The notes under the pieces: generated by a model
Told to the model about the DNA's origin: nothing
What the model saw: the letters and a program-made list of their open reading frames with translations, nothing else
The model's database searches: none
Program-made: the position numbers and the translations under genes
Part shown: positions 29,201 to 55,800 of the stretch, piece after piece
Position numbering within the stretch: position 1 is the first letter of the stretch
Layout of the letters: each line of letters begins with the position of its first letter
Assembly: GCA_905178155.1 (NCBI GenBank)
Contig: CAJINV010000008.1
Location: forward strand, 2,467,207 to 2,531,206
DNA from: Amoebophrya sp. A120
Lineage: Eukaryota; Protista; Dinoflagellata
Direction of reading: 5' to 3'
Length of the DNA stretch: 64,000 nt

Positions 29201-32200
29201 GTTCTGCCCGTGCTACTACCTGTGGTTCCCTGTTGGCCTTGCTTTGTCTTCCGAGTCTTCTCTTTGTCTGCGGCATTAAAAGTTGTCCCAGCTCCACCCC
29301 CTGAGGACTTTGACGAGGACGAAGCGAACCTTGCTTTCATCCACTTGTTTGCCTGGAACTGCGGGTCGATCATCAGTGGCCATTTCCGCTTGCCCTGCTC
29401 CGTCACGAGTATTCCGTTGCAGATCGAGACGCTGTCCGCTGGCAGTTGGCAATTCTGCCAGTGCCGAAGAATTTTCGCGTCGCCGAGAATTTCTTCTAAT
29501 GCGAAGTTGAACAAAGGAGAATTCAACAATTTTTCTCCCTCGCTAGTATTATTCTCATGCTCTTTAGTTCCAAAGGTATCCCTATCCACCAACACAAACT
29601 GCACCCATTTCTGGACCAGCTCCTCGCGGAAGGATTTCGTGAACGGGCCGTAGTAGCTCAAACAGGAGGAAGACAGAAACACGTTCGTTTCCAAGTACTT
29701 TTCCTCCACGTCCACAATCTTTTGCAGTGACTCGCGCCACCGTTTATCTTCCGACATGAGCGACTTCGTGAGAATGTCCGCTCGTTCTAACCGTTTCTCC
29801 GTCAACAACGACTCGTTGATCAACTTCTCCTTTTCCCTTTCCATCTTGCTCAACTTCTCCTGCAGGGCGTTGACCTCGTCCAGCACCTGCTTCAATTTGC
29901 CCTGCTTGTCCTGCAGGATGCTGTTCGCATTCTCCAGTTCGACGTTCATAATTTTCACCTTTTCCTTTTTCGGCTCGACCTCCTTCGCAACCACGGAATA
30001 GGTGTGGATCGCGTGCGTCCAGAGACACAACGATTTGCACGCCTTCGACTGGTTTCCCACCACATCGGGCTGGTATTCCGGTTTTTTCACGTACTGCTCG
30101 AGCTTCTTCAAGACGTTCGGCTGAATGTTATCCTTGTCGAAGTGCTTCAGCTGCTGGATGAAAGCGTTGTTGTCCGCGAGAAGCGTTTTCCGTGCGTGGT
30201 CCCAGTCGGTTTTCTCGTTCAACAACGTAGAGACCACCTCCATCGTCAGGAGGACCAGAGAAGGGGGTTTGACAAAGGACCGGATTTCCGTGATGTCCTT
30301 CTTGTCCAGCGCGTCAAGGGCTTTGATCGCGTTATTCAGAGCCGGAAGAGCGGTGTTCAGATCCTGCTCCGCCTCCTTCTGCAACGCCGCGACTTTAGAT
30401 TGTTGCTCCTCGACGATTGTGGCGTCTTTCGAAACTTTTTCCTGGATTTTGTCCGCGTTCTGCTTCTCTTTCGAGACAAACGGAATCAGCTGCTCCGTTT
30501 CTTCGATCTTTTTCTTGATTCCCGGCCGGATTTTCTCGTCCAACTGCTGCTGCAGGTTGATCACAAGCTTGTTCGCTTCCTTGATTTTTTCCACCCCGAG
30601 CGTGAGTCGCTGTGAGGACTTCTGCAGCTTTTTCGTCTTTTTCGCCAGCAGGTCTTTGAAAGTCTGCAACAGATCCAGGAAGCTGCTTGGCGTGATGTAC
30701 ACATGTCGCTGCTGCTGCTGCAAAAACGTCACTGCCGTCCTCTCGACGGCCTTGTGGACAAAAACGCAGGCGTCGCAGAATTTATGCGCTTTGATATTCT
30801 CGGACCTTGATGTTTTCGTCTGTTTGTGCGGCGAGCTAGTACTGGCGCCAGGAGAGCGAGCGTTCTGCTGCTGAATATTGGTCGTGGTGGGCAAGTTGAC
30901 TGCTGCACTGCTGGTGTGCAGCGACGGCAGGTTCGCCGCACAGTACTGCTCCGCCACCAGAAACAGAGCCTCCTCGGGCCAAGGGAAAAACCAGTCTACC
31001 GTCGTGCAGTTGATCAAACTCGGAAACAGCCGAATTCGGGTCCGCAGCTTTTCCCCGACCGGGCTCATCGCAAGGACGATGTGGAGGTTTGCTTGGACTT
31101 TCTGCTTGAAAAAGTCCCAGACGTCTTCCTTCGAAACCACAGGTAGGGGCGAAGCCGCTGCTGAGCCGTTGCCACCATAACCGGCGCTCGTCGAATCCTG
31201 TTGAGCGGAAGTGGCGGCCCGGTCGTTGGTCGTAGCGCTGTGTACAACTTGCACGATCGGCTTCAGTGTTTGCGTGATCTCCTCGAGTTGGTCTGTTTGG
31301 TACAGATTCGGCACTTCGCCGGAGTTCAGCAGTGAATTAACGTCTTCGAGAAACGACTCAGACAGGATCTGGCTGTCCGTCAGCAAGAAGCAAGTCTTTG
31401 TGCCGAGAAACTGAAAATTATCGGCTTGGTTCGCTGATTTCGACGTGCCAGCATCTGAACCAACAGCGGAGGTCGAATTCCCTGCTTGCTTGTTTCCACC
31501 CTGCTGGGAGATGGAATTCGGCTGCTTCGTCTTGCTGGATCCGGAAGCTGCAGTGGCTGCTCCTGCTGAACCCTTACCACCTGCAGTTGCTCCTGCGGCT
31601 ATACCAGCACCAACGTCGCCGTGCAGCACGGCGTTCACGCCACTGACCATCCGCAGTAACTCCTGCTCTGCCTCGCGGAACTGCACCAAACCGAAGTTCT
31701 TCGTCATTTCCAACTCAAACTTGACCATCGGATTTACCGGCAACTGTTCGTAAAAGAAGCAACAGAGCTTCGTCAACGAGCTTCGGCCACTGCCGCCGAC
31801 GCCGACGAGAAGCAAAGAGCCGCGCGGCTGGGAAAGAACCCGGGAAATGCGGACGATGTGCGAAATGGCGTCGCCGAAAAACACCAATTGCATCGGCGTG
31901 TTGCTTATCAAATGTAAAAGTGTCTGGGTCTGGAAGAATGCAACTTGTCATGCTAAATCTGAATCAGGCAAAAAACTATGTTGCATGATTGCCAAAAGTT
32001 GTGCATTTTTGACCTAATCGGGAGGCAGTTTCTCATGCAGGATAGGCATTGGAAAGGTTTCGCAGAATCTGTCATGCTATGTCCTACATACCAGACCTCA
32101 TGGGTTATGGAAAACGTGCATGACAAATCTGGCAATCTTCCAGACCCAGACATTTTTGCAATCCATATTGCTGTCGTTGTACTCGTAGTTGTACTGCTGG

Positions 32201-35200
32201 AGCAGGTGTTTCAACTTGCTCAGGTCCTTGATCTCCTCGTAGTTCCCAAATCCTGCGGGGTTAGTGGCGCTCGTCCCACCGCCCGCTCTACTTCGGGAGG
32301 ACGGCGAAGCCGCGGACTGCGACAACGATGCAAAGTTGCCCCAGTACACCGGGAAGGCCACCGGCAAGGAGGAAGCGCTGTTTCCATCGTCCAAGCCTGT
32401 GCCTGGAGAAGCTGAGCGTCCATAATCCGTGGACGATTTTGTTGAACCCATCGTCTTTGTTTTTCCGTCCATCGAATCCAGAAAAACCTCCACATTCCAG
32501 GCCTCCGCCCGGTATTTCTGCTTCATGATTTTCGACAGCTTGTGGAAGAACCACACTTGGTCCTGCTTTGAATTCAAACGGTCGTGGAACACGCGACACA
32601 TCTCGTGAATCCACAGCCGATGGAAGGCTTCCTTGTTGGGGCAGTGTAGCGATTTCACGGAGAGAATTCCCTGGAACACCCGGGCCACGTCCCGGAGATT
32701 GAACAAGTAGTGCGGCTTCGAGGGGGTTGGAAGTAGTTTCGAGACGATGTCCGTGTAGAGCTCAATCGTCGAGGAAACGCAGACGTTGCCGATGATCTGG
32801 ATTTCCTGCTTGAAAGTCTGCAAAAACTGTCCGAGAATCTGGCCGAAAATCTGCTGCATCTGCGTCGCCGAAGTCTGTGGCATGACGAGCAGGTTCGAAT
32901 GCCGCATGAACCTCGGGGAGAGGACTCTTCGGCCGCCGCCGGGAAGGCCGGCGGAGTAGACGAACGTGCAGTTCTGGACGTTCTTCCAGAAGAGCTTCTC
33001 CCGGTCGTAAAAGCCGTGGAAATCCTGGAGGAAGCGGAGCAGCTCGATCACCGGCTGCGCTCCGTACTGCTCCGGCGTCGGCATGTTCACGTCGTCGATC
33101 AAAATGATAGCTTTGGGCTTCAACTGGAATTGCTTCGTCGTCGGAGAAGTGGATGCGGGAGAACCCCCGACGTGCACCGCCACATTCATCCCTTTTTTGA
33201 CGTTCCCGAAGGGGCCGAGAACATTTTTCCGCTTCTTTTCCAATTTCGTTTCGAGGCACAGCTGCGTCTTGCTCGCGGTCGTCTGCGCGCTGAAGATCAG
33301 CTGCGCGAGCGGCTGGAGCAGCGAGCTCGCCGACGCAGGAGTGGCGCCACCGTCGGGACTGCCGCTGTTCTTCTCCTTCAGGCTGCGCATGAGCTTGGTC
33401 AGCAAAAGACTTTTCCCCACGCCCGCTTCGCCCGCGAGAAAGGCAGACTTGTTCGCGGTAATCAAACGGTCGAGAAGGTAGGAGTAGCGGATCGAATCGA
33501 CGGTCGGGACAAAAAGCTGGTGGAAGAAATCCGGCTGTCGCTGCTTCGGGAACTGCCACTCCGGGGCGAGAGACTCCCAAGGGATCAACTGGGGGGCGGT
33601 GGAAGCGCTAGCTCCGGCGGCCGAAGTAGAAGACGCCGCATTCGTAGAACTACCTCCCTGCGCCGTCGTGCTAGTTCCCGCAGTGGCAATCGCGGTGCTG
33701 CTGGCTTGCTGCGCGTGAAGATGTTGCCCACTTGCACTTCCGACCGTCTGCATGGCGATCGCCTGCAAATCAAACCAGCCACTGTCCAAAGTGGTGCACT
33801 GCCGGTTCACATACTTTTCCCCCATCTTCTGCGTCAAGTGCGCCAAGAAGGCACTGCGCGTCTTCGGCTCAGTCAGGACACACCCAATTGACCAGGTCAA
33901 CGCGAACGCAAAGATCGGCTGCAGAAATTGCTCCAACTGCTTCTCTGAAAGCGTTTGGAGGAAGGAAAACACGTGAAACTGGTTTGAATCTTCGAGAAAT
34001 AGCTGAGCGTCTTGATCACCGTGCTGTGTTCCACCTCTCCTGCTGCTCTCCTCGGTGTTCAGACTCGACGTCCCGCCCAGGTAGTTGCCCCCAACACTGG
34101 ACTCCTTGCTCGCGGACCGCGCGGAGGCCTTGCTTCCCTGCCCGCGGCTTGCGTGCAAGCTCTGCTGCGTTACGCGGTCGGCTGCGTGATGAGACTTGCT
34201 GCCTCCTGTCATCATGGTCGTGCTGTTTCTGTGCCCGCCCCCGCTCGACGGAGACAAGGAGAAACTTGACGTCGAGAACCCGCCGCCACCCTCTGTCACG
34301 CAGCTCCGGGCGTTCTTGGTCGTGCAGCCGTACGCGGTTAGTGCATCAGGGTTATCCAGAATGGCGGAAAAGATGTTGCAAAGGGAAATCACCAGTTGCG
34401 TGTTTTCCGTCGGTACGGCTTCCACACTGCTGGTGGAAGAGAAAGAGCTCTGAGGGCCACTAGCGCCTCCAGATCCTGAAGATGCACCGCCACCGGATGC
34501 TGGGCCGCTCGCGCTTGTCGCTGGTCCTGAGCTAGAACTGCCTGATGCTGAGCCTCCGATGACCGCGCGCAAGACCTTCAAACTCTCGTCAACGTGCTGC
34601 TCGAAGAAGCGCCACAGTTTCTCTCGAAGGCTACTGGCACTGTTCGATTGTAGTTGACCTTGGTCCACACTTGTTGGACTCGCTCGCTCTACTTGCGAAA
34701 ACACCTGCAGTCCCGCAATCCATCTTCTCACGTACGGTCGCCACCCCAGGTCGCCACCGCTTAGGTACACCATCCCAAGACGCGACACCGTTGCTGGACT
34801 GGCCTCCCGCAGAGTGTCGCACTCGAAGAGCAGGCGGATTCTCTCCGGCTTCAGCTTGATCCGTTCCCCAGAAGCCAGGCACAGCATCATGCTGTCGTCC
34901 AGCACCGTGTTCATGTTCTCGATCCAAAGGGCGTCTATCGGACCGTCGAAAACAATCCAGTGCTGCATGGCCGCGGATGCATTGTTCATCCCGTCAGCTT
35001 GCTGCTGATGCGCGGTGGCTGCGACCTCGTTACTTGTTCCCGCAGGAGCTTCTGTAGCACCATGCAGCGCGGCACCAACTTCTGCGGTCGTTGCAGCCGT
35101 GCTGCCTGGTGTCACACCAGCTCCACCAATCGTCGTCATTCGGATGAGGCTGCTCCCTAGCCCGTCCTGCCACTCCTGCGTGAGCTCGGAGAATTCGCCG

Positions 35201-38200
35201 TACAGCTCGCCCATGCTGATGCACTTTGGATTCAGAACATGCGTTTTAATCTCTTTCTGCACGTACTTCTGGACACTAGAAGTAAACATCCTCAGCCGCT
35301 GCTTAGAGCTAGATACACTGCCAGCTCGGAGGTTCCGCGCGAGACCGCGACTTCCCCGGCGTTGGTCAAAGGTGGAAATAATTGCGCCGCCGCCCTCTTT
35401 GCTCATGCTTCTCCTTCTGGTTTCTCCAGTCTTGCTGTTCCGCCTCTGATGACTTTCTGCCACCACCTCCTTCACAGCTCCGGAAAACAAACTGGCACGC
35501 CGGGTACGCGACTTGCTCGCGGTGCGCGCCGTGCCGCTATTTATGCTGACCGACGTGTCCTCTTCGTCGAAGTCCAGAAAGTCGGCATCGTCATCGACGA
35601 AGTCTTTGTGATGTGCCCCACTGCTTGTTCCCCCTTGATGAAACATGCTTTTCCGCTTGGAGCCGCCCCGGTTGCTGCCCATCATCCCCGCGCCGGCCCT
35701 TCCTGCGCTGCTTTTCCGTCCTTCTCCGTGGAAAGCATGTTGCTGCTCCACGAGAAACTGATCACGCAGCAACGTCAAACTTTTCGCCAAAGTCTCGTAG
35801 CACACGGTCTTGCCGCTCAGCGTCTGGCCGACAAGTGAAACACCGATCCGCAGCTGCAACGTCTCGAACAGTTGCACGATCTTCGAGATTTGCGCAGGGA
35901 CGGGTGTGAGGCCAGGTGAAGATGAAAATAAGTTGTCGCCTGTGGTCGCATCGTGGTAGGAGCCCTTTATTGCTGTGTTTATTGTGGTTCCGCGCAACAC
36001 TTCTTCGATTCCCGCTTTTAGGAGGTCGCTAGAACCTCCTTCCGCTAAAGAGCCACCATCTCCCTTTTGCGCGTTCGACGGAAACAGATCTTGCACGATG
36101 TCACTGAACAGCGGAACGTCATCCGCGACAAATTTTGGCACGTTCGCGTCCCGCATCGCAGCCAATAACAGCCGGTGCTCCAGCTCCTCCTCCGTTTCCT
36201 CGTGGTGCGGCGACTGCGAACGCATACTGGGTGCTGCAGCAGGTTGATGATAAACCCCTCTGTAGTTCGTCGTGCCTGGATCTGCTCTGTGCAAGGGATC
36301 AAGATTCTCGTCGTCCATACTCTCTCCCGCAAGAACCTCACTCATGTGTTTTTTTAGCAGGTTCCCTGCCATAAGCAACACCGACTTCACCGCCCGCATC
36401 CCGAAGTCGTAGTGGTCCTGCTGCGACAGCTGCTCGCTGCAGAGCTTGAACAGGTAGGTGAACTTTTTCGACAATTTCCGCGCCGTCGCAAATCCCTCCG
36501 CGAACAGCATCACCTCCGCGATCAAGGTGAAGTCGGGGACCATCATGCTTATCGGGCGAAAGAGAATTTTCAAGTTATCGGGGAGCTCCGTCCTCCCCGC
36601 GTACCCCGGGTTCATCGTGATGCAAACGAGGCACGTCGGCTTCAACTTCAGCAGCACGTTGCCCTCGAAGAAGAACTCAGACAAACATTGCAACAGCGCC
36701 TGCCGGATCGCGGTCAGCTGCTGCGCGATCACGGACAAGACTTCGATGGAAATGCGGTTAAACTCGTCCAAACACGTCCACGACCCGCAACTCACCACGC
36801 CCGAGTACAATTTTGCCATCATCTTGTAGTCGATCTGCTCGGAGCAGTTGAACACCACGCAGTGCCGGGCGAGCTGCTTCGCGAGGTCTTTGGTACTTTC
36901 CGTCTTCCCGGTCCCCGCCGGCCCGCTCGGGTTCGCGCCAAGTTTCAAGTGAAGGGCGCCGGTGATGGTGAGAAAGCAACGGTCGGTCAGGGGGGTGATC
37001 ACCAACCGGGTCGTGTTCCCCGTGTACTCGTAGCCATACTTCACCACGGCGTCAACCTGTCTGACCAAAACTTCGTTCAGGTTCGGGTCCACGGAAGCAG
37101 AGCCGGTGCCCGCGCCGCCCGTTGGTTGGTGCTGCTTGCTGTTCAAGTTCGATTGTTCGCCAGCGCTGTTACTTGTCTCGACGAAGTTATCGTAGTAAAA
37201 CCGCAGCTGCTGTTGCCACTTGAAAGATTTTGCACTGGTGATTTTTTCCTGAGCTAAATTCTCCGTGATGTCCCGGTAATGCACGTCCTGCGTAATCAGC
37301 GCGACGATGGAGAGTCTCTGGAGCCTCGTCAAATTTGGAAAAGTCTTCAGAAGATCGGTCAGCTCCTTCAGCTGCTGCATTTGGATCTGAAACCACTTGG
37401 ACAGAAGCGTGATACTGATCGCGTTTTGCTGCTGCAGCTCCGAAGAAAGGGCAGCCTGCGCCGCTGTTCTCGGAGAAGCACTTGGGGAGTCGGACGTCTT
37501 GTTTGTGGATGTTGCACTTGCGGCGGACGAACTAGCGTTTGTTCTCGCAGTGTTGGAAAAACACTCTTCGGTAATTTTGCACCACAGAATCGCGTCAACT
37601 GTCATGACCACCTGCATGTGCTTTTCCAAAACGAAGCGCGCTCTGGTGTAGTAGCTCCGCTTTTTCGATTCGCGGATTTGCTCGGTGAGCAGCGCCAGTC
37701 TGCTGTGTTCGGCCCTCAAGCCGTGCTGATCCTCGATCATGGCATTATTCCCACGGCCGCTCTTCACAGCACTCCTTGAGGTCGACAGCAGCCGCTGCTT
37801 TCCCTCCAACTCCGACAGTATCGCGTCGGTCGTGGCGAGCTTGCTCCGCACCATGGCCGCGGTCGCTTGGTCCGAAGCAGGGCTATCACCATCGCCGGAC
37901 ACGCTCACGCCCCGCCCGCCGGTCGACCCTGCTTTCGACCCGTGTCGCTGCTTGCTGTGCGACCGCACGTCGTCCTGGTCGAAAAAGTTCTGCCAGGGCG
38001 CTGGGTTGTAAACCGAGTTACTAGCGGCAGTTGTTCCGGGGTGGCTGTAAAAAACACCGTTGCCGATGATATTCGCAAAGTAGTCCCGCAGTCCTCTCCT
38101 CACCAGGGTCCAAATAGACTTTGTCATGGTTTCCTCCACCTCGTTTAACCACCTTTCCACATTCCCGCTCCTCGCTTTCAACGTGCGGTAGAAGTAAACT

Positions 38201-41200
38201 TCTTCCTTCTCCTCCGACTCCATGCCCAGAATCTCCGCGCTGTTTCGGTCGACATTCGCAAATTTGAGCGTGTACAGGCCATCAAAGCACTTCCGTAAGT
38301 GCGGCCGCACCGCCTCAATCTTCCGGGCCTGCGCCAATATTTCCAGCAGCTCGTCGTTGGAGAGAAAGAAGAACCGGGGAAAGGAGAGTCTTTTCGACTG
38401 CAGGTAGTCTTCGAGGGATTTCTGGATCGTATCCAGCGTCGTATTCCACTTCCGGAAAAGCTCCAACCGGGCGGCGTTGCTGTGCTGCTGTTGGTGCTGG
38501 TGTTGTTGGCCTCCTCCAGTTGTAGTTGTTCCCATCTGTTCGGCAGACGGTGGCCCACCAACCGGTGCTGTAGGTCCGGTACCGGGAGACGAAGCTGCTG
38601 CTGGCGCAACACCTACAACACCAGCTCCGATACTATGTTCCTTCCCGCCGGGTCCACCAGCACCGCCTGCTCCTCCGTGCTGCAGCAGCTGCAAGCCGCA
38701 GGCGTGGTACGCGAGGTTGTTCCCCTCGGAGCACTCGCGCATGATCATCTTCCAGTGCGTGTCGATTTCCGCGAATTTCGCGTTCTCCGTCGGGAGCTGC
38801 TTCTTTATGTCCACCGCGTGGAAAATCGACTCCAGGTACATCCAATTCTTCTGCAGGAACTGCCACTCCTCCAGGCAGTCGAAGAGAATGTTCAGGTCGG
38901 TCTGCCACCGTTCCACCTCCTCCTTCAGCGTGGGGTACAGGTACCGCGAGGAAAGAATGGTGCTGATCTGCACCAAGCTGTCCTCTAAACTCGGGATCAC
39001 GTCCTCCGCCAAGTCGTTCAGAATGTAGACTTCTTTGCTGTCCTTGTAGGGGAGAAACGGCAGCTCCTTCTGGTACAGCCACAGCTCCTTGATCTTCGCA
39101 AACAACTGCTCCAGTTCCGCCTCCTGCGTCGCACGGTTGCTGATCTCGGAGAGAGGCTCCAGCTGTTCATCCATCCTCTTGTCCAGTGCGTGCTGGAGGC
39201 TGAGGGAGGCCAAAAAAGAACTCGCGGAGTCGTGATAGCTGGAAGAGGCCGTCGTGTTGAAGGCGGCCGTGCTGGAACCGCCAGCCGCGGCTACAGCACT
39301 GTCGTGTTGTTGCAACTCCAGGGTTGAGGGGGCAGCAGCCGCTGCGGCTGCGGCGACAGCTGCTGCTGTGCCTGCGGTAGTTCCAGGAGGGCCGGATCCT
39401 TGCGGTGGTCCCGCGGTACTTGTTCCAACGTCCAATTTGTTTTGGACAAAAATCTGCTGGATTTGCTCCCAGTGGCGCTTTTTCAAATTTGGATTGCGCA
39501 GGGCGAGAACGACGGGGAGCAGGTTTTTCACCTTCTGCACTTCCTGTTTGAAAGCGACGACACAGGGGTTGCTGTCGACAGTCGTCGTCGTCGTCGTCGA
39601 AATTTCGGCGCCACCAGCTCCTTGCGTCGTGGACGAAGAAGTGCCACTTTTCTTGTGCACGAACACAAAGGGCCCGAGATTGCAGTAGTTCCGCATGCTC
39701 GCTACAGCGACCTGGAAAAACCCGCCCACCTGCTGCGTCATGCTCTCGATGTCGATTTTGTCAAAGAAAATCCCCTGCAGCGTCTCGCGCTTCCCGATGG
39801 TTTTTTTCCACTTCTCCACCGCGCGCCAAAAATTCGCCACTTCCAAAATACGCTGCTCCAGCTCGTCTACCTCTTCGAACGGGATTTATGAAATTGACAA
39901 ATGCCTGGACTCTACAGCGTTCTTGGGAGGAAATGTTCGTGATGCAACGTCCCCCTCCTGGAGCAAAGCAAGCATTGCCAGTGTTTGTAGATCGGCATCA
40001 TGTTTGCCTATCTTTCTAGATCTAGAATAGCGAAAGTTTATGCTGCACCACGAAAGTGCTGCGCTTCTGTATCGAGCGATGTCTACCTAGCGCCCTGTTG
40101 ATGAAGCTGCTGCTGCAAATGCTGGCTTAGAATCCGCAGCCAGCTAAATGCATCCACTGGATTTTCGTCATCATCATCTCCTCATGAAATACAAAATCGT
40201 CGCACTGGAGCTGCGGTCGGGGCACTTTTCAACATGATACAGTTGTCTCCACATTCAGCGTCCTTTGGTACCGATTGTACTTCTCCGCATTTTCGATGTG
40301 CTGCCGACACCGCTGCTCGTACTGCTGCAACTTTGCGAGAATGTCGTCCAGCGATTTCGGATCGTGCAGCATGTCAGCGGTTTGTTCTGTTGTAACGGTG
40401 TAAAAGTCCGCAGTAGATTTGTCACCGGACGAGTTGGACACCACGTAGCGCACGTCCGAGAACTCGTTCTGCATGTCCTTGTCCAGTTTCTGAAACTCGT
40501 CCCGGCACTTGTACTGCAGTTGCGGAATGTCCCGGGCAAGTTCCGTGGTGAACCTGGTTACGTTCGCCTCCACGGTCTCAGTCGACTGGGTAATCTGCGA
40601 CCGTAGAGAGTCGCCCACCATCTCCAGCTCCAAAAACAAAGAGCGCGCCCGCACGTCCATCGTAAGGGTGTGCTTTTTTGCGATCTCGAAGAGGTCCAGA
40701 ATGTAGTTGATTTTCCGCTGCACCAAGTCGGAGTTAAGCGACTGCAAAAAGTTGACGAACAGGATGTACTCATCGACGTTCTGGGGAAGTTTTGCCAGGC
40801 GGGCGTGCGCGTGCTTGCACTCCGCGACCAACTCTGTCGCGAGTTGCACGGAATTCGTCGGGAGGAAGTCGGCCAGCAGGTCGTAGCACCGTTTCTGCAT
40901 CGGTTGCAGCAGCTGTTTGAACTGCGCGGTGTGCAGTTGGAAAAAGTTCAAGTTCGAGGTCAGCGGCAGCTTCTTCCGGCAAGTCTCCTGCTGGTGCTCG
41001 TATTTCTGAAGCAGCCGGTTGTAGTCGGCGACGCGGTCCGCTTTCTGGCCGCGGTCGTTGATGGCAGCCGTGTTTGGACTCTTCTTCATCATCCGCGCAG
41101 CTCCCTGCTGGTTGTGATGCGCAGCGAGGACCTGCGGGAGCCGAACAGGAACATACTTCTTCGTCGCGGACAGGAGTTGCTCCGCAGCGGCGGTCGTGTT

Positions 41201-44200
41201 TGATGAACTTTTCGCGTTTATTGTTAAAAACTGCTTTTCACTTGCCCCTCCGAGCGCACCTAGCGCAGACCCCCTGCGCTGTTTGTTCTTGAGGCTTTGC
41301 AGCATCAGCATCTGGTCTTGGTCGTCCCGAATTTTTGCGGCCTCCGAATCTGGGTCGTAGCTTTCCTCCAAGTCCAGTTCGATGCGGACCTGCTCCATCG
41401 CGGCCGCGGACTCCAGAAGTGGCAAATCTAGCATCGCGTTCTCTTTGTACTCGATCACGTAGGGCGTCAACTCCACGTTCAAATACGCCTCCACCCCCAG
41501 ATATGCATCGCAAAACTATCATAACATTGACATAGACATATTTGGCTTTGGCAATTGCATAATTGCTACAAGCTTCATCCCCGAGCAGCAGTATTGTGAA
41601 AAAGGTCGCAAAGAAAGCAACATGCCTGTCATGCATCATTGCAGCCAGTACGGGCACGACACTTTTGCACAGGATACGAGCTCGAACAACTCGGGCAGCT
41701 CCTCATCGAGCAGCTTGTCCAGCAATATTTGGAAGAACGACCCGGATTCCGCGTGCACGATTGTCTGGAAAAACTGGTTCGCTTCCGCCACCTCCTGTTT
41801 ATTTTTCTGCTGGAGTTGTTGTGCGGAGATCTTCGCCAGCACAGTAGAAGCTGCAGGAGTGGCACCCGAAGCTGCAGATTGATGCTCGGTGGCGCCATTC
41901 AGGAGTTGTGGTTGTGCAGAAGTAGGAGCAGCCCCCGAGGCGTTCTTGTTGCCTGCAGATGATATTAAAGTGCCACTATCTAGTACTACGCCTGCTGTTC
42001 TGGAGGCTGCACTAGAAGTAGTTGCACCTTGCTCGATTCCGAACTTCTCCAGAAATGCTTCCAAGTACTGAAACCGCGGAAAGCTCGTGACGAAAGAGAC
42101 CGCGTTGTAAATGCTCTGTTCGATCTGGTCCTGGAACTCGACGAGGCTGGGAGTAAGCTCCAGCTCCAAATCGTGTTGGTCGGCCGGTGTCGAAGAATTT
42201 GTATTTGACAGAAAAACGCAATCGATCTTAAACAGTGGGCGATTGTTCTTCGGCCCACCTCGCAGAAACAATTTTTCTGCACCAGAATTGTCAGCTCCAA
42301 ACTTCCCGGCTCCAATACTCGTCGCTGGAGAGTGCAACAGCATCGGACCTCCAGCACCGCCCGCGACGCCAGCGCCCCCCAGCAAGTTCCCGAACCCACT
42401 TTTGTTTAACGCCGTGAAACCCTGTGCTGCGGTCTTCCGGGGGCTGTGCATCGGAGAACGAACCCCTCCTGCGGCGGTTTTGCGCTTGTTTTGCTGCTGA
42501 TGCGAAGCAGCACTCGCCATCTGCTCCTCATGCAGCTGCTGCTGCTCCTCTGCCTGCCGCTTGATCTCCAGTTCGTACTGCTGCTGAATCTCCCGGTCCT
42601 TTCTTTCCAGCGATTCCAAGTCGTGGGGTAAGTCCGCGATGATCGCCTTAGGACACCAGTAGGCAAAAACGCCTCCGGGCGAACCTGGAGTCATCGGAAT
42701 CCCAACCTGTAGATTCCTACCGTACTTGCGCAAAATGTTGAACAAGTGCTTCACCGTGTTTGTGCAGATGTTCAAAACCGTTCCGTCATACACGAGCTGG
42801 ACCAACCGGATGAAGCGAAATATTCGCCGGCACTGCGTGCGGCGAGTCGCGCGCTCCGTGTACGACTGGTTCTGGCTCGCCTCCTCCCGCATTTGCTGCA
42901 AAGCCTGCGGCGAAAAATCCGGCTCGACCACAGCGAGCGAGGAGGAATTCATATTCTTGCCTTGTTGTTGATACTTGTTACCAATATTGTTGTTCGTGTT
43001 CCTCTGCGGATGAGCGACATCTTCCTCTTCTTGAAGATCCTCGTTGTTCTCTTTCACATTGTTCGACGTCCCCGCTGGTACTATCGAGCCACTCGCAAAT
43101 CCGTTCTGCTCCAGAAAGCGCTGCAGGGAAAATTCACAACAGCCTTCCATCTCGTCCTTTAAGAACACCCAGAGCTGCTCGAGCTCCTCCCGCACCGTGG
43201 TTCGGAGAAACTCCTCTTGCTTCCGCTTCCACTCCTCCAAACTCCAAATGCCCGCCTTCTCGTCATCCGCCGAAAGGTACGCGCTCTGTTTGTAATTACT
43301 CCGCTATCGGGTGGAAAAACGTACGCAAGTACTTACCCATATACCATCATGAGCGTATCAGCATCTTGCGGATTTGCATTTATTGCATATGACATTATCT
43401 TAGAGCGCCCTCATACGCTTTCGCAAGAGAAGTCAAAATGGCTTTGTGATTGTGATACAGCTGCGCTCCTTGACGTGGTCACGTGTGACTCTCAAATAAA
43501 TATCTAGGATTTTAGGGTGTAAGTAGTTACAGCGTTTGCCTCACAATATCCGTTGCGACTTTGTCTTGGTCGCGAAACTGGCCGGGAAAAACGCAGCCGC
43601 CTGCGTCGCTCGACCTGCAGCTCCTCCTGGAGAGGAAGGAACAAAACCTCCAGCTCCTCCGGTTCCCCCGAAGGCCACAGCGCTAGTATTGACAGCGCCG
43701 GCAGGAGCCGCAGTGGCCCGTCCAGCATTATTCAACATTCCGCCAAGAAACGATCCGGCGGCCGTGTTGGTCTTGAAAAGCGAGGAGGACATTGTGGTGC
43801 CACCAGCTCCGCTCCCACTTTGGTGTGTTGTGGTCAGCATCTGCGGATACAAGAAGTTCGGGTTCCCGGTCTCCGGAAACGCCAGCAGGCACAGACTTTC
43901 CTCCACCATGCTGCAGGCCGCTCGGATGCGCAGCAACGCCGGCTGGAAGCAGTCCGCGTCGAGAGAGAACAGAGCGCTTTTTACCCGCCGCTGGTTGCGC
44001 TCAAACTGCTCCCTTTTCGAGATCTTCTTCCACAACCGGAACTGGCGCCACTTCTTGAATTTCTGCACGAACGGGATCTTCTGCAGCTGCGCGTACTGAA
44101 ACTGCTCCCGTTTCCACTCCTCGATGGTCAGAAACTCCTTCTCTGTCGTCATCACGTTCGACGTGGCTGAAGAGGACGACGCGGCGGATGATGAAATTGC

Positions 44201-45637
44201 TGGTCCGCCGCGGCCGGCGCTTCTCGGCGTGCGAGACGTGGCCGACGCGCTCGCCGCGGCACGACCAGTTCCAGAGGAGGTCGTGCCCCGGTCCATGTCC
44301 CCGAGGTTGTTTTCTTCACCAACATCCCCCAGCACGTGATCCGCTTCCACCATCTCCACCTTCCGCGTGTGCACGACCCCGCGCAGGCTCAACGTGAGGA
44401 AATCACAGGGGTTGATCTCGGAGTAGGGCACAACCTCGTACCGGTACGGCTCGTCCGGGAGCCGGTTCAAGTAACAGAACTCGTCCTTCAGGTCCTCGTG
44501 GCGCTCTAGAAAGGCCACGAAGTGCAGCGGGTCCACGTCGAATACTCGTTTTGGAGGGGCGGAGGGGGCTGCAGAGGAAGCTCCGGAAGCTTGGCCTTCA
44601 GTTCCTCCACGGCCGGATCTAGTGTTGTGCCTACCACTACGCGCTCGTCGCGGGGATCCATTTGCATGATCTGCACTCGTGGAGGCCACGTGCTCCTGCA
44701 GCGGACTAGATGCTGCATAGCTTTTCGCTTTCGTTTTATTTCCCCCCACAGGACTCCTCGCATCTTCCTCTTCGCGTGCCAACGATGAAAGCAGCGTTGG
44801 GTTATTTTTCATCTTCCTTCTCGCGAAGGCAGTGCTGTCGCCAGGTCTAGTACTCGGCGACAGAGGAGACGACGGCTCCTGGAACTGCAGCCCACGCGGC
44901 CCCTTGTCCACCGAAGGGCTCGTCGCGTCATGACGGTGCTGGTGGCTCCTACTCTCCCCACCTCCACCTGCAGATGGTCCTGCCACTGGAGGCGGATGGT
45001 AATTGTCCCCGGCGAAGTGCAAATAATGCGCATTCTTGACGCTCGCCGCACTCACGGGTCGTTTTTGCGGCGAAATAATCCGCCTCGTCGCCAAGGAGGC
45101 CGTGCCCGGTCGCGAAATATACCCCGAGGTAGACGGTCGGGAATTGCTGCCGCCTGCTGCAGCAGGCTGGTGCGCGCCAAGACCTCCAGGTATGAAAGTA
45201 GTGCTGCCAATGCCTTGTTCTTGAGGCTGATCATTTGTAACATCGGTCCTTGCATAATTCGCTTGATTGGTTGTCGTGTTCCCTCCGGTGTTCCTTTCCT
45301 GCGCGCTTGGTGGAGATGCAGCACCAGCGACAGAAGAGACAAACGGCGCTACGTTCGTGTGAGGGCGCAAAAAGGCTGTCCCGTTCGCAGCCCGTGTTCC
45401 CGGAGGCGGTCTTGGTGTGCGGCGGGGTGTAAGCTTCGCACCGGCGTCTTCGCCTCGACCAGTTCTCGGCGTTGCAACCAAGGGTGGCTGGTCACCTTGC
45501 CGGTACAAGCGGCTTTGCAACCCCTTAGCCTCAATATCCTCAAACGAGAGCGCGGGAAGCTGAAATTTTGTTTTATCTCCAGGGGTCGCCATTTTGATTT
45601 TTTCGATGGCATTTCTATAGAAAGGGCAAAGATCCAC
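23209..45637 (-). CDS. Axonemal dynein heavy chain, inner-arm DNAH6-like, about 6,900 aa, at least 6 introns; 5' end uncertain
   Basis: Linker FPRFFFLSNDELLEIL; P-loops GPAGTGKT, GQTLSGKT, GEAGVGKS and GVGGSGRS; coiled-coil stalk with MTBD; ILLQNCHL; C-terminal exon YTCPLYKT...YWVLKGTAML with stop at 23209-23211. The N-terminal block EFLTIEEWKRE...IPFVQKFKKWRQFRLWKK resembles DNAH6-type tails. Introns lie at about 43304-43549, 41501-41644, 39886-40240, 31906-32172, 26694-26860 and 23368-23815. Confidence 0.96.
31906..32167. mobile_element. 262-bp TIR introner, copy 1 (in dynein)
   Basis: TSD TTGCT at 31901-31905 and 32168-32172, with about 32-bp TIR TATCAAATGTAAAAGTGTCTGGGTCTGGAAGA. Removal gives the conserved YNDSNTPMQLVFFGDAISH. 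Confidence 0.95.
39887..40239. mobile_element. Degenerate 353-bp TAT..ATA intron (dynein)
   Basis: Ends TATGAAATTGACAA and TATCATGTTGAAAA match at 10 of 14. GT..AA removal of 39886-40240 gives ETT|IPFEEVDEL in frame. The TSD is eroded. Confidence 0.6.
43305..43548. mobile_element. Degenerate 244-bp TAT..ATA intron (dynein)
   Basis: Flanks TCCGC/TCCGT match at 4 of 5. Removal gives KSQR|SNYKQSAYL in frame. Confidence 0.7.
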
Positions 45638-46486: not shown

Positions 46487-49400
46487 CTAATTCCCCGGCG
46501 CCCCTGTCGTCCCGGCAGCAGTAAATGCGAAGCGAAACTGTGGCCGTGCGGGCGCAGCGGAGAATGCCATGGGAGATTGACGTCCGATCGTGGGAGAAAG
46601 TGCACCGGGCCGGGCAAAATTCCCGATGCCAAATTTCACTGGGGAGGCGAAACCAATCTGTGTTGTATGATAGAGGTTGGGTTTGAGATTACATTTACAA
46701 CGAATGGCTGGACAGCTTTATGTATCTGTATGCTCGCCTTGTTATGCACTCACACTCACACTCACGCAGCAAGCAGAAATAGGAAGAGCAGGTCGGAGAT
46801 CCTACCCTCATCTATTTTTCCAACCCGTTAGATTTATTCCCACACTATGTATACATTTACCATACTTCATGCAACAGAACCAGCAGCGTTCCTTTCTGTA
46901 CCGAGGGCTGAAACTGCGTCCCGACCCGTATCGAGGGCTGCGTGTAGGTTGCATTCCCCTGCTGCTGCTGCGTAGGATTCGCCGCGGACCCACCCGGGCC
47001 GTAATTTGGATTTCGCCCTTGCGTGGAAATTCCTGGAAAATAGAACCCCACAGAGGACTGCTGCTGTTGCTGCGGCGGGTTCCCTGCAGTCATCCCCGAA
47101 ACGCGCGGTGGCTGCTGGGCCGGTGGTCCTCGTGACCCCTGTTGCGAAGAGGATGACTCTGCTCGCTTCACTTCAAACGTGATAGTATTGGTTCCCGGTG
47201 TAGTATCCGGTTGTTGCACTGCTTTCTTGCTCCCGTCCAAACCCGCAGTACTGTCTTCAATGACTGCACCTGCGGGGTGGAACCGTGGAAATAAAAGGTG
47301 AGCAGATCGATATTTTCTTTTTCACCGACTGCAGAAATGACATTGGATGCGAAAACCAACGCACAGCTAAAGCTGTGGCAGCAGCAAAAGCATTGCCACT
47401 AAACTACTACAAACAATACGACACGATCACGTCCTGCTCGTACCTGGCACATCACTGTCACTACTGCATCTGCAAAATAATCATCTTCATCGAGAGAGTC
47501 AGTTATTTTCCAATCCTTCTGCTTCTAAAGAGAGCGTAAAACTTGCACCCTCTCGTCAAGAAATAGCAGTAGCTTTAACTTCATACTGGAAAGCATCGCG
47601 CCACTGGTCCGCGGTTTCGTCGCGCCGTAGCCCGGAATAGTTCTGTCTAGCCCCGGACTCCGCATCCGTGGGTTACTGTCGCTCAGCATTGTTCGCTCCA
47701 TGTTGTTATCCCGCACCGCTGGTGGAGGCACCGCAGGTCGGGAGGGCTTGCTGTGATATTCACAGAACAGGTAAACATACACTTTCCGGATCCCTCCTAC
47801 GTACGCATCTCCATCGCGGAAACCGATTTACAATATCGAAAGACCACAGTTGTGCCTTTCCACCCCTTCTGTACTGTCATACATGAACGTGAAGGACAAA
47901 TTCAAAGATGAAATTCTACCTGGTATAACATCACATATCAAGAAGTCTCTGTCGGTTGTTGTACCTGGCAAAATTTCCGGGAGACTGTGGCAAGTAGGAC
48001 GCCTCGAATGCGTTCGGATTCAAAGTCATGCCCTTCGCTTTGCTGCTGGCACGTGATCCCCCCGTCGAATCCTCCATGCTGGCCCTGACAAAATTCATGT
48101 TTCGAAAACATCACTCGAAGCGCTCTTCTGTCGTCGTGCAAGAAACTGCTCGGCTTGGTATCTATATGCTCGAGTGGTACCCTCGCTGTTGCAGCTCAAC
48201 CTACTGCTTGCGCTGCTGCTGCTGAATAGTACTACTACTATACATACTCGGGTGGCTCGCAAACATGCAGCACCTTCACTGAGCATCGCTGTGCTCCTGT
48301 TGCGTCAGGACAACATTGACTTATGGATGAAAACAAAACGAGGAACAAGCCCTTCTTCGAAGTATCATACTTCTTCGACTGCAAGCCGCTTGCCGTTCCT
48401 GTAGACGGCGGCACTGTAGTACCCGTGATCAAGTCAACAGGAGCTCCTGCTCCAGGTGCAGCTGCTCCCGAGGTGGTGCTGTACGCCCCACCGTAGCCAA
48501 CCGCGCTGCTCCCCGCGGTGGACATTGCTGCACCGTAGCCGTACCCACTCGTTGAAGCACTTCCGATGCTAGCATGATACCCCGTCGGCACGTTCTTCAA
48601 AAAGTCGACCTTGCCCGATCGGAAACGGAGGTTCTGGTGCGAGTTCAGGATGCCGAACGCTTTCCAACTTGCGTTATACAGTCCGTGCTTGTCCCGCACG
48701 TTCTTCCAGGTGTAGATCGCGGTCGCGACCACCGAAATCAGAGCGTATGGGGCGGACAGAGAAAAGACACGCAGCGTGACAAGTGTGGTTCTACTGTAGT
48801 GATTGGTCGTGCTGCAGTCCAGCACCCCGCATCAACAACAAGACCTCAACCGGACCGCGGGAGGTTCTTGTCATCCTAGTAGTACCCACATGAGCGATTG
48901 AATTCATCTGCATGAAGATGGACATGCAGTAAAGTAGATTTATTGCCACAGCCAGGACGGTGTAGCATTTTTCCGCTGCTCCTCCTGCTTAGTCTTTAGA
49001 AAAAGGAATAGTCAAACGAAGAAGCACGTAATCAAAAAGCGCCAGGTGTTGCCGTTCTGCGCAGTATTTCTCTCTTCGTACGTCCTCCAATTTTTCCAGC
49101 TTGTCAGTCATCACGTTCACGTCGCTGCACCTGCAATGATTGTGTTTCGTGAATAAATATGCATCGCAAAGAACATGTCTGGGTCTGGATGACTGCAGGA
49201 CCTGTACATGCTAGGCCGAGGTGGCTGTGGAGAGCGTAACGCATGTTGGGAAAGTAGAGCGTCGCTTCTTTCTAATGTGCAAATGCTAGTAATTTCTAAC
49301 ACAGAATTTACGTAACGCGCAGCTCCCCAGAAACTTCAACTTGTTATTCTCGGCTATCTGCTCCTGCAGGAAAATCTACCACAAGTAGATCGGGCCGTAC

Positions 49401-51703
49401 TAATGTCAGCCCTGCCAGTATGCTAATGTGGTGAATGAGGTGTAGTGCGTATGTATCTTCTATACATGACTCCCATCGCTTCCGCGACCTGCATGATGAT
49501 ACTGGACGGTAGCTTTGCAGCAAGCTTCCCGGACTGTGTGTTTACTACCAGCAACTGCGGGATCCCTGCACAGCTCATGCCGAATTTCTGTGCGGCGAGT
49601 GTCTGGAAATCGTAGACCCGTTGAAAGTATGCATTGCAAAACCATCGCTCTCGGAGCACAAATTATGGCGGAACGACATGACAAGAAACCCCACTTCATT
49701 CACTTTCCATTCCTTCCATTCAGAAAAATTCGATTCTTCACTCATTCAACATGCTGAGAAAAATCGTTCGGCGCTTTGTACTTATGTGCAAGTGCGATAC
49801 CTACTTTGGTTGCAATGCATAGAAAGCTGTCAACGGAGGACCCATCCGCTACGTACAGGATGGCGTCGCAGTTTTCCTGATTCAGGATTTTGTTTAACTG
49901 AACCTTGTCCGGCGCCAGTTGCGTTTCCTGTCCCGACCCCTCAAAAAACTCGAGATGGACCTGCTTGTCCTTGTGCTCCAGCACCAGATTCACAAAAGTC
50001 TTCGAATGTTTCACAACCTCGCGCGTCGCGGAATAGGAACTGGACCGGGACCCAGCTGAGGGGGGAGAAACATGGCATCAAGATGTGTCGTGCTGGGGCT
50101 ACTCACTACTTTTGGTGCATCATTGAAGAATAAACTTGACCCGGTGCATCTGCAGCTACAAAATTCAAGTAATTTCCATCCTTAACCTCCTTAGTAATCT
50201 TCATCATAAACGAAAGTTGTACACACAGATACAACACAGCAAAGCGAAGAAGACGAAAGCATCGTGGGTACTTACCCGAGGAGCCGCACAGCTTCTGCAA
50301 GAAAGCACTTTTCCCCGCTTCTGCTGGCCCGAGCACTCCAATGCGGTACGTTGGCGGCCCTTGCTGTTTCGACGCCGGCGGAATGATCATGCTGCTCTGC
50401 GCTGGGCGCGCCGCCCCGTAAAACGACGAAGAGGTTGACGCCGAGAGATTTTGCGCGGTCAGGCCCGGCTGCTTCATACCCTGCCCCCCACCCGCCGTGC
50501 TGCTTGCCAGTTGCGATGCTGCGGCAGTCGCCGCTCCTACCGCCGCAGAACTTGATGTGACGCCGCCCGAGATAGTACCGCTGTTCTCAACATTTTGTCC
50601 TGCTACAGAAGATACAAGGCCGGCCGTCTGCTGCTGGTTGAGGCTGAGGGCCATGCGGGTGATTTTGTCCAGCAAGACGTCCACACCCGCGCCGGTCTTT
50701 GCGGACACGCGGAACTGCGGCACGTTGTGCTTTTTCGCGTACTGCTCCGCGATTTCCTCGGTGACCTCCTCGTGGTGCGTGACATCGGACCGCGTGCCCA
50801 CGATCACGAACTGGCAGTTCGGACACTCCTCCGGCGTGCTCAGCATCTGCTGGTGCCAGTGTTTTACCCCTTCGAAGCTGTCCGCCAAAGTCATGTCGTA
50901 CACCAAGAGCGCGATGTGCGCATTCTTGAAAAACCCCTTCAGTACCAGTGCGGCGTCCGGGCCGCCGAACCCACAGTCGTACAGACACAGCCGCACGCTC
51001 TGGTTCGTGGCGGGTAGCACCTGGTCCAACCAGATGAACTCCGAGGCCGGGGTTGCCTCGTATTTTACCGGGAACGGCCGCTTCGTCAGCGCGCACGACA
51101 CCGCCGTTTTGCCGACCTGCGGGTCCCCGACCAGAATCACCTTGCGGGGCTGGTGCTGCTGCAGACCCGGCCCGGGCGCGAGCAACCGGTGGCCGGAAGA
51201 CGAGGCCGCCTATCCGAGTGCGCAACGGGCTCCCCTCCACCTCATTTATTGTGCAAAGTACTTTCTGTAAGTAGTTACGAACCCAGTTGTTGCACTTGCC
51301 TTTTAGTACTGTTCGCATGACAAGCACAAGTTGCACAACTCCGAACGATGTTTTACGGTTCGTGTGCAGGTTTGTCATGCGGGTATTAAAGCTGCAATGT
51401 TGTCGCTGCTTCCGCTGCTGCTCATGCCCGTCTTTATCAAAGGGGCGGGAGAGAAAAATTTGTGCACTCTCATACCGCTGTGGTGGTTGAGATCACCGTG
51501 GGTGCGGCCGTCGGAGGCGGGTGGGTCTGGTGCTGTGGCACTGCATTGCTAGTGGACGTATACGGCGCCGACGAAGCTGCACCAGAGTGTTGGTAGCTCG
51601 CCACGATGGGTGCCTGTGCGCTGTAGTCCTGCTGCGCACTTGTCGTGGTTGCTGGCGCCACATTCGTCGTCTGCGTCGGGCTGCCGAACCACGCGGAAAA
51701 CAT
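46487..51703 (-). CDS. Multi-exon protein with two tandem Ras/Rab-like GTPase domains and low-complexity termini
   Basis: Domain 1 has GDPQVGKT, YDCG, LLVYD, VGTRSD and VSAKTG. Domain 2 has GPAEAGKS, LEFFEGSG, AILYVAD and PQLLVVN. In-frame junctions were found at 51210-51475, 50056-50275 (GT-AG), 49628-49826 and several further GT-starting introns. The 3' exons are less certain. Confidence 0.75.
49628..49821. mobile_element. 194-bp TIR introner
   Basis: Perfect 12-bp TIR TATGCATTGCAA and perfect TSD GAAAG (49623-49627, 49822-49826). Removal gives VDSF|QRVYDF. Confidence 0.9.
51211..51474. mobile_element. 264-bp TIR introner with canonical GT-AG-compatible ends
   Basis: TIR matches at 12 of 15 (TATCCGAGTGCGCAA/TATGAGAGTGCACAA), with flanks CCGCC/CCGCT. 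On the sense strand it reads GTAT...ATAG and is in frame. Confidence 0.8.
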
Positions 51704-52894: not shown

Positions 52895-55800
52895 CTACCA
52901 CCGTTCCCGGTCGGCGGCGATTTCCTGTAATGCGTTCACCAGCAACTGGTGCCCTTTGTCGCTCCAAACCGCGTCCATAACGTGCACAAACGTGGTCTTT
53001 CCGTCGGTCCTATCAAATGTAAAAGTGTCTGGGTCTGGAAGATTGCCAGGTTTGTCATGCACATTTTGCATGACTCCTGATGTCTGTGATGCATGCCCTA
53101 GCATCACAGATTTTGTGAGGGTTTCCTGATGCCTATACCGCATGACAAATGCTCTTTCCGTGTAGCAAAACTTGGACTCTCGTTGCTGCTCATGCAATAC
53201 AAATTTTTTTAGAATCCAAAATCAGCATGACAAGGTGGATTCTTCCAGACCCAGACATTTTTACATTTGATAGGTCCCGTCCTGCTCCACCCACTTCGTC
53301 ACGTCGTAGTTCTCCACCCACTTATTGATGTAGAACATCTCCTATCAACTGTAAAAATGTCTGGGTCTGGAAGAATGCCAGACTTGTCATGCTGGTTTTG
53401 CATGACCGATGCGGCCTGGCATGTAGGACATAGCATGACAGATTCTGTGAGAGTGCTATCATGCCTATCCTGCATGAGAAACCGCCTCTCGATTAGGTCA
53501 AAAGTGGACAGCTTTGGGCAATCATGCAACACAGATTTTTACATAATTCAGATTTAGCATGACAAGTTGCTTTCTTCCAGACCCAGACATTTTTACACTT
53601 GATATCTCCTGCCCGGTGTATCCTGTGTCAGCAAATAACCCAGATACAACCCATAGAAGTACGGCGACATAGTTGAGTTCCGACTGTGAAGTGTGAACGG
53701 GACTTCAACTTTTGCAACAAGAATGAAGCAACTTTAGAAGCTACGCATCTTCACTGGCGTGAGTGAGACCGCAGGACTATTACCTTTGAACCAAGCGACT
53801 TTGCTTGGCTCGCGCGACTACATTACATACCTATCAAACACGCACTGTAGAGTAGTCCCATTTTGTTGATTCCAACGGCACAAAATCAAACACCAATACG
53901 AAAATGCCTCTCAGTATGCAAGGTCGCATCAACAGATTCAGACGCATCGCGAAAATGCAAAATTTTTATGCCGAGTCTCGTCTGGGTTATGGGTGCGTTT
54001 TTTCCGCAAAATACGGTATCGTGTTTCTTCTTGATCCAGTAGTTGAACCAGCCGTGGAAGCCCTCCTTCTTATCCCGCTTGCGCACAACTGTGTCCCACC
54101 CTCTTTCTCATGCATATCTTCCCAGCGACGACAACCTTTGGCAAGGGTTCTTGCATCATCGGGATTTGATGTGCTGTAGTCGCCGATGCCGGAACAGTAG
54201 GTATGAAGGTCGCGCCCGGAGGGCGATATTGGTAACCAAATGCGTGCGCGAAATTCTAACCAGCGCGAAAGCCTAACCAGCCGCGCGGCGAAAGCGCGGC
54301 CCAGCGGGCCGCGCTTTGGCGCTATTTATTTTTGATTACAGCCCCACTCCTTCTTCTGCAAGCCCCCTGCATGAGAAACTGGCCCCCTGGCCAGGAAGGT
54401 ATCTGGGTCATCGGGGGCTTCCGGATTCGCATTCAAAGCTTATGGGCCGCGGGGAAGTGGTGGAGCCCGCGGCGGCCCGCAGGCTCCTGCGATAAGCATT
54501 GAAGGCGAAATCCGGTCTGCTATTTCGCAGCGGGGCATCCTCTCTAGCCCCCTGCGTGACAAACTGGCCCCCTGGCCAGGAAGGTATGCGGAAAGCCGAA
54601 AACCCGCGAACCCTTCCGGGCAACCAAAATCGNNNNNNNNNNNNNNNNNNNNNNNNNNNNNNNNNNNNNNNNNNNNNNNNNNNNNNNNNNNNNNNNNNNN
54701 NNNNNNNNNNNNNNNNNNNNNNNNNNNNNNNNNNNNNNNNNNNNNNNNNNNNNNNNNNNNNNNNNNNNNNNNNNNNNNNNNNNNNNNNNNNNNNNNNNNN
54801 NNNNNNNNNNNNNNNNNNNNNNNNNNNNNNNNNNNNNNNNNNNNNNNNNNNNNNNNNNNNNNNNNNNNNNNNNNNNNNNNNNNNNNNNNNNNNNNNNNNN
54901 NNNNNNNNNNNNNNNNNNNNNNNNNNNNNNNNNNNNNNNNNNNNNNNNNNNNNNNNNNNNNNNNNNNNNNNNNNNNNNNNNNNNNNNNNNNNNNNNNNNN
55001 NNNNNNNNNNNNNNNNNNNNNNNNNNNNNNNNNNNNNNNNNNNNNNNNNNNNNNNNNNNNNNNNNNNNNNNNNNNNNNNNNNNNNNNNNNNNNNNNNNNN
55101 NNNNNNNNNNNNNNNNNNNNNNNNNNNNNNNNNNNNNNNNNNNNNNNNNNNNNNNNNNNNNNNNNNNNNNNNNNNNNNNNNNNNNNNNNNNNNNNNNNNN
55201 NNNNNNNNNNNNNNNNNNNNNNNNNNNNNNNNNNNNNNNNNNNNNNNNNNNNNNNNNNNNNNNNNNNNNNNNNNNNNNNNNNNNNNNNNNNNNNNNNNNN
55301 NNNNNNNNNNNNNNNNNNNNNNNNNNNNNNNNNNNNNNNNNNNNNNNNNNNNNNNNNNNNNNNNNNNNNNNNNNNNNNNNNNNNNNNNNNNNNNNNNNNN
55401 NNNNNNNNNNNNNNNNNNNNNNNNNNNNNNNNNNNNNNNNNNNNNNNNNNNNNNNNNNNNNNNNNNNNNNNNNNNNNNNNNNNNNNNNNNNNNNNNNNNN
55501 NNNNNNNNNNNNNNNNNNNNNNNNNNNGACCTTCACGCCTCCCGGCGGTTGCCCTATATGGTAACGGCAACTGCCTTCGCGCTGCGTTTGCTAAGCAATA
55601 TCGCAAGCGCGCAGAGCGCGCGCGCCGGCTTCGTGGGCCGGCGCGCGCTCTGCGCGCGCGCGCGCACGCACGCATTTGGTTACCAGATTACTACAGTCTA
55701 CTGCGCGTAAAGGTTTATTGCAATGCAAATGCCGTTTACGTTACCTTCTTTTCTGCTCCTATGAATGCCTTGCGAATGAGAGCAAGCGGCAGCGGGACGA

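Follow-up and report, generated by a model that had tools for sequence, protein, structure and literature searches.

How can copies of a single intron-like element interrupt coding exons in both orientations and be removed from either? This question is raised by a 64,000-nt stretch of Amoebophrya sp. A120 (contig CAJINV010000008.1, positions 2,467,207 to 2,531,206; "the window" hereafter means this whole stretch), for which an initial annotation had reported one introner family inserted both ways round. In this genus, more than 60% of introns lack GT-AG, the intron class is supported by RNA-seq, and U1 was undetected, according to the available sections of Farhat et al, 2021 (PMC7789003). Our analysis suggests that these elements are probably two-way, transposon-like introns, in which the removal machinery would read the mirrored ends only and take out the element plus 5 nt (element+5) with no need for GT, AG or interior signals. 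The observations behind this are the orientation of the copies, their TAT...ATA ends bearing TAT-N4-TGYAAA, the random 5-nt duplications that flank them, and the lack of splice dinucleotides or a branch consensus.

We aligned the four copies named in the annotation (Table 1), and the orientations that it had assigned were borne out: copies 1 and 4 lie opposite to copies 2 and 3. BLAST paired copy 1 with copy 3 (87% over 257) and with copy 2 (75% over 258) in minus orientation, and copy 2 with copy 3 in plus orientation (76% over 269). The internally deleted copy 4 matched copy 1 in plus orientation (70% over 97, E ~2e-5) and copy 2 in minus orientation (77% over 112), and is inverted relative to copies 2 and 3. 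Copies 1 and 3 form a 262-nt inverted pair with 86% complementarity, and the terminal inverted repeats (TIRs) of copy 1 span about 36 nt. The 24-mer that had been described as a terminal arm does occur on the plus strand of copy 1 (31941-31964) and as its reverse complement in copy 3 (53546-53569, minus strand; chance expectation 0), but in neither element is it terminal: it sits 35 nt in, with the terminal repeat outside it. The hosts, identified through homologs and orthologs, are all on the minus strand as annotated: an axonemal dynein heavy chain gene for copy 1 and a rhodanese-like gene for copies 2-4. The closest proteins to the window genes are from Amoebophrya A25 and AT5, with AT5 g1971 and g1974 being the counterparts of the rhodanese-like gene and the dynein gene, respectively. 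The Pfam rhodanese match is weak by itself (E 0.011), and a search for longer relatives of the exon at 57468-58112 found none. Because the A25 (P0121) and AT5 (P0122) proteins align in minus orientation between 60687 and 52898, spanning copies 4, 3 and 2, both orientations are present inside one gene. Copy 1 lies at the start of the dynein AAA4 region, and reading through it meets 4 in-frame stops.

For a wider tabulation, an exact 21-nt end pattern was used to collect at least 144 stretches (loci L001-L144) from one other assembly; none matches the window over 300 nt. The loci were gathered by this one exact 21-mer, and copy counts are among the matches listed. These included 144 element matches, with both ends found in 126, of which 118 were unique and 97 of the 118 had a perfect 5-nt duplication. 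A motif search in the same loci added two further families, while the reversed-sequence control gave no match, and 183 elements whose repeats agree at 4 or 5 of 5 positions made up the scored set. Clustering by interior sequence yielded families of 136, 23 and 14, with zero orientation conflicts in 3692 edges for the largest (the clustering set contained two mispaired window candidates, 1290 and 56698-57081; orientation and branch counts are from the loci only). The three families have unrelated interiors and the same ends. To call host strand (at a margin of at least 8) we used a codon model for which the window's dynein gene served as training set; it was correct in 54/56 held-out dynein windows and concordant in 51/54 within-locus pairs. 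The largest family showed 52 sense and 52 antisense copies (104 of 132 with a callable host strand), the second 10 sense and 7 antisense (17/23 callable), and the third 6 and 6 (12/14), and the balance was similar at other margin thresholds. Among same-family pairs on one host strand, 10 of 18 were opposite in orientation, and the Pfam DAGAT gene of L077 carries two copies in opposite orientations. If retained, 102 of 104 copies would break the reading frame, and it is because of this that we infer removal from the RNA. When 242 exon-piece references, which took in 127 of the 183 scored elements, were scanned against Pfam, few hosts could be named, and only for RPB1 were both sides of a junction placed precisely in one profile. 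With TIRs, a fixed-length duplication, a short non-coding interior and many copies, the elements have the features of MITEs (miniature inverted-repeat transposable elements). Variants at end positions 4-7 recur across the three families, which suggests end exchange or few allowed ends. Insertion phase was skewed among 116 copies (phase 1, 52; phase 2, 33; phase 0, 31; p 0.03).

Conventional splice signals were largely absent. Across 116 perfect duplications, GT-AG was possible at any register in 6 and G[TCA]-AG in 12, whereas 54 had no AG at any register and 31 had neither GT nor AG. In a 77-copy subset, these options occurred at chance level (GT-AG, 4 observed versus 2.4 expected; G[TCA]-AG, 9 versus 7.4). 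The base composition of the duplications equals that of the exon background, and the G excess seen at the first duplication position (43 versus 35.3, z 1.56) did not reach significance. The usual branch consensus, YTRAY, was present in the last 70 nt of 2/52 sense and 0/52 antisense copies. Sense and antisense copies alike carry a TGAC between -45 and -47, which belongs to the extended inverted repeat. Base counts at transcript 5' ends equal those at 3' ends once the latter are reverse-complemented, so that donor and acceptor are not specialised; TATG end variants were considered as a mark of the transcript 5' end and rejected, as the variants follow the element. The initial annotation had proposed that excision depends on a TIR stem and not on interior signals. 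Given the 52/52 balance, the lack of branch, GT or AG excess and the unrelated interiors, the sequences support the second half, that interior signals may be dispensable for removal; the first half does not follow from orientation, and the pairing tests gave mixed results (below). Two insertions lie in very conserved sites, L063:1491-1752 (RPB1) and L094:291-558 (ABC ATPase). AG occupies positions 3-4 of the repeat in both cases, perhaps by chance or through a weak preference for an acceptor.

The length removed was assessed using reading frame and homologs. Beyond the four copies, the window holds eleven further TAT...ATA insertions (41502-61586), with repeats of 1-5 of 5. The +5 frame is best in 10 of these 11, and in 14 of all 15 window elements, including those with repeats of 1-3 of 5. 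In L063, where a sense copy interrupts RPB1, the upstream exon reaches yeast residue 830 and the downstream one picks up at 832, and element+5 supplies exactly the one residue between them. We take this site to be the bridge helix, where an extra residue would presumably not be tolerated. Orthologs also fit element+5 best at copy 2 (A25 and AT5, 197 versus 186 and 187 versus 184), at copy 4 (three orthologs, 164 versus 155, 165 versus 154 and 88 versus 80), and at 56211 and 60300, although what such a fit reveals is the pre-insertion state, and it is proof of splice length only at sites that do not tolerate an extra residue. At copy 3 the orthologs were uninformative, the AT5 dynein was too divergent for comparison at 41502 and 43305, and PDB searches of the ABC, dehydratase and rhodanese junctions found no structure covering both sides. 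The two repeat copies differ at 56211 and 58114, and to encode the residues that A25 and AT5 have in common there, position 2 must come from the left copy and position 5 from the right. The cut would accordingly fall within the duplication, at 1-3 nt ahead of TAT and 4-2 nt past ATA. Of 22 mismatches in the duplications, 12 fall at third, 8 at first and 2 at second codon positions, too small a number for placing the cut. We also simulated +5 removal with aligner sliding and compared the outcome with the published A120 splice-site table. With exon 5-mers, the first rule placed 12 of 13 site classes within 0.8 points and a set of 12 rules placed 8-12 of 13 (mean error 0.37-0.62), while the 116 real duplications fit poorly (3-6 of 13, error 1.06-1.47). 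The simulation predicts the unlisted motifs TA-AG and AT-AA, and gave 9/13 with a 30% share of elements cut one base outside each end (element+2). This modelled agreement with +5 is consistent, not decisive.

Taken as a mechanism, the elements would have spread as non-autonomous cut-and-paste elements through some transposase. Once transcribed, each would be removed from the RNA together with 5 nt, giving back the pre-insertion sequence, by a staggered cut inside the duplication. Recognition would be chiefly of the mirrored end sequence, namely the terminal trinucleotide and the A-run or U-run, with pairing as a helper that brings the ends together, and the machinery would most likely be an altered, U1-less spliceosome. 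The unbiased 52:52 ratio, the random flanks and the cut placed inside the duplication would leave room for the signal only in the mirrored ends, over about 20-36 nt. A broader version can be offered tentatively, and we consider it doubtful: a single orientation-blind code, in which a non-spliceosomal or rebuilt U1-free machine measures from the TAT...ATA ends, makes the offset cuts given above and erases such transposons without trace from any mRNA, and the published splice-site "diversity" in tens of thousands of introns reflects this rule via aligner sliding. If the main account is right, insertion of these transposons in genes would be silent at the protein level, and the spread of the elements would be explained.

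Several results weigh against the +5, end-reading account. The listed loci are biased to young copies because they were collected with one exact 21-mer. The cut placement comes from two junctions only and assumes that the exon kept the ancestral residue. At 58114, AT5 favours +8, and at 56908 neither ortholog favours +5. The loop at copy 1 has 5 residues in 74/108 dyneins and in the AT5 ortholog, and 4 in 2/108; element+5 leaves 4, and element+2, which adds one codon per insertion, scores higher (237 versus 226). Element+2 is also in line with the published A120 table, where 8 of the 9 most frequent non-canonical sites take the form NT-AN, and four old window elements would then read GT-AG. 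Nevertheless, we regard element+2 as improbable. It predicts none of the published GT-CG, GC-AG, GA-AG, GG-AG and GT-TG sites, it disagrees with the diverged duplications at 56211 and 58114, and the RPB1 spacing and the orthologs at copies 2 and 4, 56211 and 60300 fit +5 (as a pre-insertion state only). About equally improbable is an ordinary two-way introner of the Aureococcus/Polarella type, where the repeat or the duplication would provide GT/GC/GA and AG for either orientation. Such introners are on record (10.1101/2020.10.14.339549, in the parts available), copies 2 and 3 are readable as GA-AG and copy 4 as GT-AG, and there is a U-run at each end along with the TGAC shared by both orientations. 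However, the low and chance-level counts of G[TCA]-AG options, the lack of any in-frame option within 12 nt of the ends of copy 1, and the residue that GT-AG would insert at copy 4, which three orthologs do not have, largely refute it. Transposase-like excision would be expected to show symmetric TA-type ends, indifference to orientation and exact restoration, and ciliate internal eliminated sequences are a parallel for removal from DNA. Yet removal at the DNA level, or polymerase skipping via the repeat, is the least probable of the alternatives considered, given that two genome assemblies contain the elements, that frame is kept with duplications of just 1-3 of 5, and that the cut would lie inside the duplication and not flush with either end.

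The most serious competitor is structure only, the idea of the initial annotation and of the hairpin model (Farhat et al, 2021), in which a terminal stem defines the cut and the end sequence matters for transposition alone. Orientation cannot separate stem from motif, because turning an inverted repeat round leaves its 5' and 3' sequences unchanged; a requirement for stem pairing is therefore not derivable from orientation, and mirrored motifs explain orientation-blindness equally well. Young copies do fold end-to-end in either orientation (copy 1, z -5.9; copy 3, z -11.5), with similar mean predicted pairing at positions 8-13 (0.87 sense, 0.90 antisense; energy difference p 0.12). Pairing exceeds the shuffled level at positions 10 and 14 (88 versus 66.4 and 111 versus 94.8, of 136), but this covariation may reflect subfamily ancestry. 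In addition, the elements at 51211, 58114 and 58837 lack the motif register and are still predicted to pair, which counts against our account as well, and Euglena nonconventional introns need pairing ends (PMC12501133, as far as its accessible text goes). Another point against our account is that the end motifs may be retained for the transposase, not for splicing. On the other side, pairing is at the shuffled level at positions 4, 5 and 7 (76 versus 80.0, 84 versus 84.7 and 49 versus 48.5), and the transcript strand of 133 copies shows no preference for G-U over A-C (61 versus 79 for positions 1-16; 95 versus 100 for 1-25), though such tests are weak where stems are long. Four of the 15 window elements, including copy 4 (fold z -1.2), have predicted pairing of at most 0.2 at positions 8-13, both at 37 and at 18 C, and these four retain much of the end motif. 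We thus favour motif recognition helped by pairing as the probable reading, and consider structure only rather unlikely. The results leave two sharply separable models, motif and stem, with exact predicted junctions.

Table 1 Host genes and TAT...ATA insertions in the window.
Feature	Position	Strand	Details
Axonemal dynein heavy chain gene	23694..45577	-	Host of copy 1; extent approximate; from open reading frames and AT5 ortholog tblastn (45577-30229)
Rhodanese-like gene	52898..61752	-	Contains copies 2-4 plus seven more TAT...ATA insertions; approximate at its upstream end
Copy 1	31906..32167	+	262 nt, TAT...ATA; antisense to host; duplication 31901-31905 / 32168-32172, 5/5
Copy 2	53011..53272	-	262 nt, TAT...ATA; sense; duplication 53006-53010 / 53273-53277, 5/5
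Copy 3	53343..53604	-	262 nt, TAT...ATA; sense; duplication 53338-53342 / 53605-53609, 5/5
Copy 4	56698..56853	+	156 nt, internally deleted relative, TAT...ATA; antisense; duplication 56693-56697 / 56854-56858, 4/5
Older insertion	41502..41676	-	In dynein gene; end motif on both ends, end pairing not predicted
Older insertion	56211..56590	-	In rhodanese-like gene; duplication 3/5
Older insertion	58114..58415	-	In rhodanese-like gene; duplication 3/5
All eleven further insertions (starts), the three older ones above included	41502, 43305, 49628, 51211, 56211, 56908, 57141, 58114, 58837, 60300, 61346		

Elsewhere in the window, a single family-like 3' end was seen at 49156-49213, for which no matching partner was found. 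An 895-nt N gap (54633-55527) lies within an intron of the rhodanese-like gene and is adjoined by a GC-rich segment resembling an inverted repeat (IR). A gene for a Ras-family GTPase, which seems to have a second GTPase-like domain, lies at 49400-51600. At 6655-7770 there are internally palindromic units of 195 and 98 nt in tandem, and the window ends in tandem arrays of 14, 17 and 29 nt (62775-64000) that are possibly subtelomeric. Rfam gave no match anywhere in the window.

The elements themselves, the hairpin idea and two-way introners with ordinary splice sites are already known. What appears new, as far as we searched, is the absence of orientation bias, the apparent absence of a dinucleotide need, one proposed +5 rule over three families, and a predicted cut inside the repeat. 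The sections, supplement text and tables of PMC7789003 that were available contain no orientation analysis of the A120 elements ("strand" has 0 matches) and report no autonomous transposase. Literature in which subscription journals were largely outside, including the accessible parts of PMC12130899, PMC9860276 and PMC12005148, held no report of Amoebophrya element orientation, nor a precedent for unbiased orientation without splice dinucleotides. As in the window, the introners of Polarella glacialis and Aureococcus are elements with TIRs and target-site duplications (TSDs) that make introns in either orientation; however, they use GT/GC/GA and AG sites, and the Polarella classes quoted are all orientation-biased (10.1101/2020.10.14.339549, in part), whereas here there is neither dinucleotide need nor bias. 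The nonconventional introns of euglenids and diplonemids, as described in the accessible portions of PMC12501133, PMC12621601 and PMC11282704, share the lack of GT-AG, paired inverted ends, direct repeats, a cut offset from the paired motif and a probable MITE origin. They differ in having a CAG/CTG motif with a purine as first exon base, in belonging to an unrelated lineage and in having been tested by knock-in. Judged from base counts, with no dedicated scan, the euglenid signature (N3CDG ... CHG N5-6, then R) is absent from our elements, which have TAT/ATA ends and unconstrained flanks. The non-canonical introns of Fritillaria are likewise MITE-derived, with TIRs and TSDs and a spliceosome adapted to non-GT/AG ends (PMC11282704, PMC13326754, both in part), but their borders are fixed as AG-AC or AG-AT, while none are fixed here. 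The closest likeness is to the A120 introner elements, whose IR is TAT, seven variable bases and at least 3 A, with 3-5-nt direct repeats, non-canonical borders, a mean length of about 240 nt and a proposed hairpin (PMC7789003, as above). The window elements match these in their TAT + 7 nt + AAA ends, their 3-5-nt border repeats and the interruption of coding exons by a repeated family. The A120 borders have been published as highly diverse, whereas here an element plus a random 5 nt covers three families.

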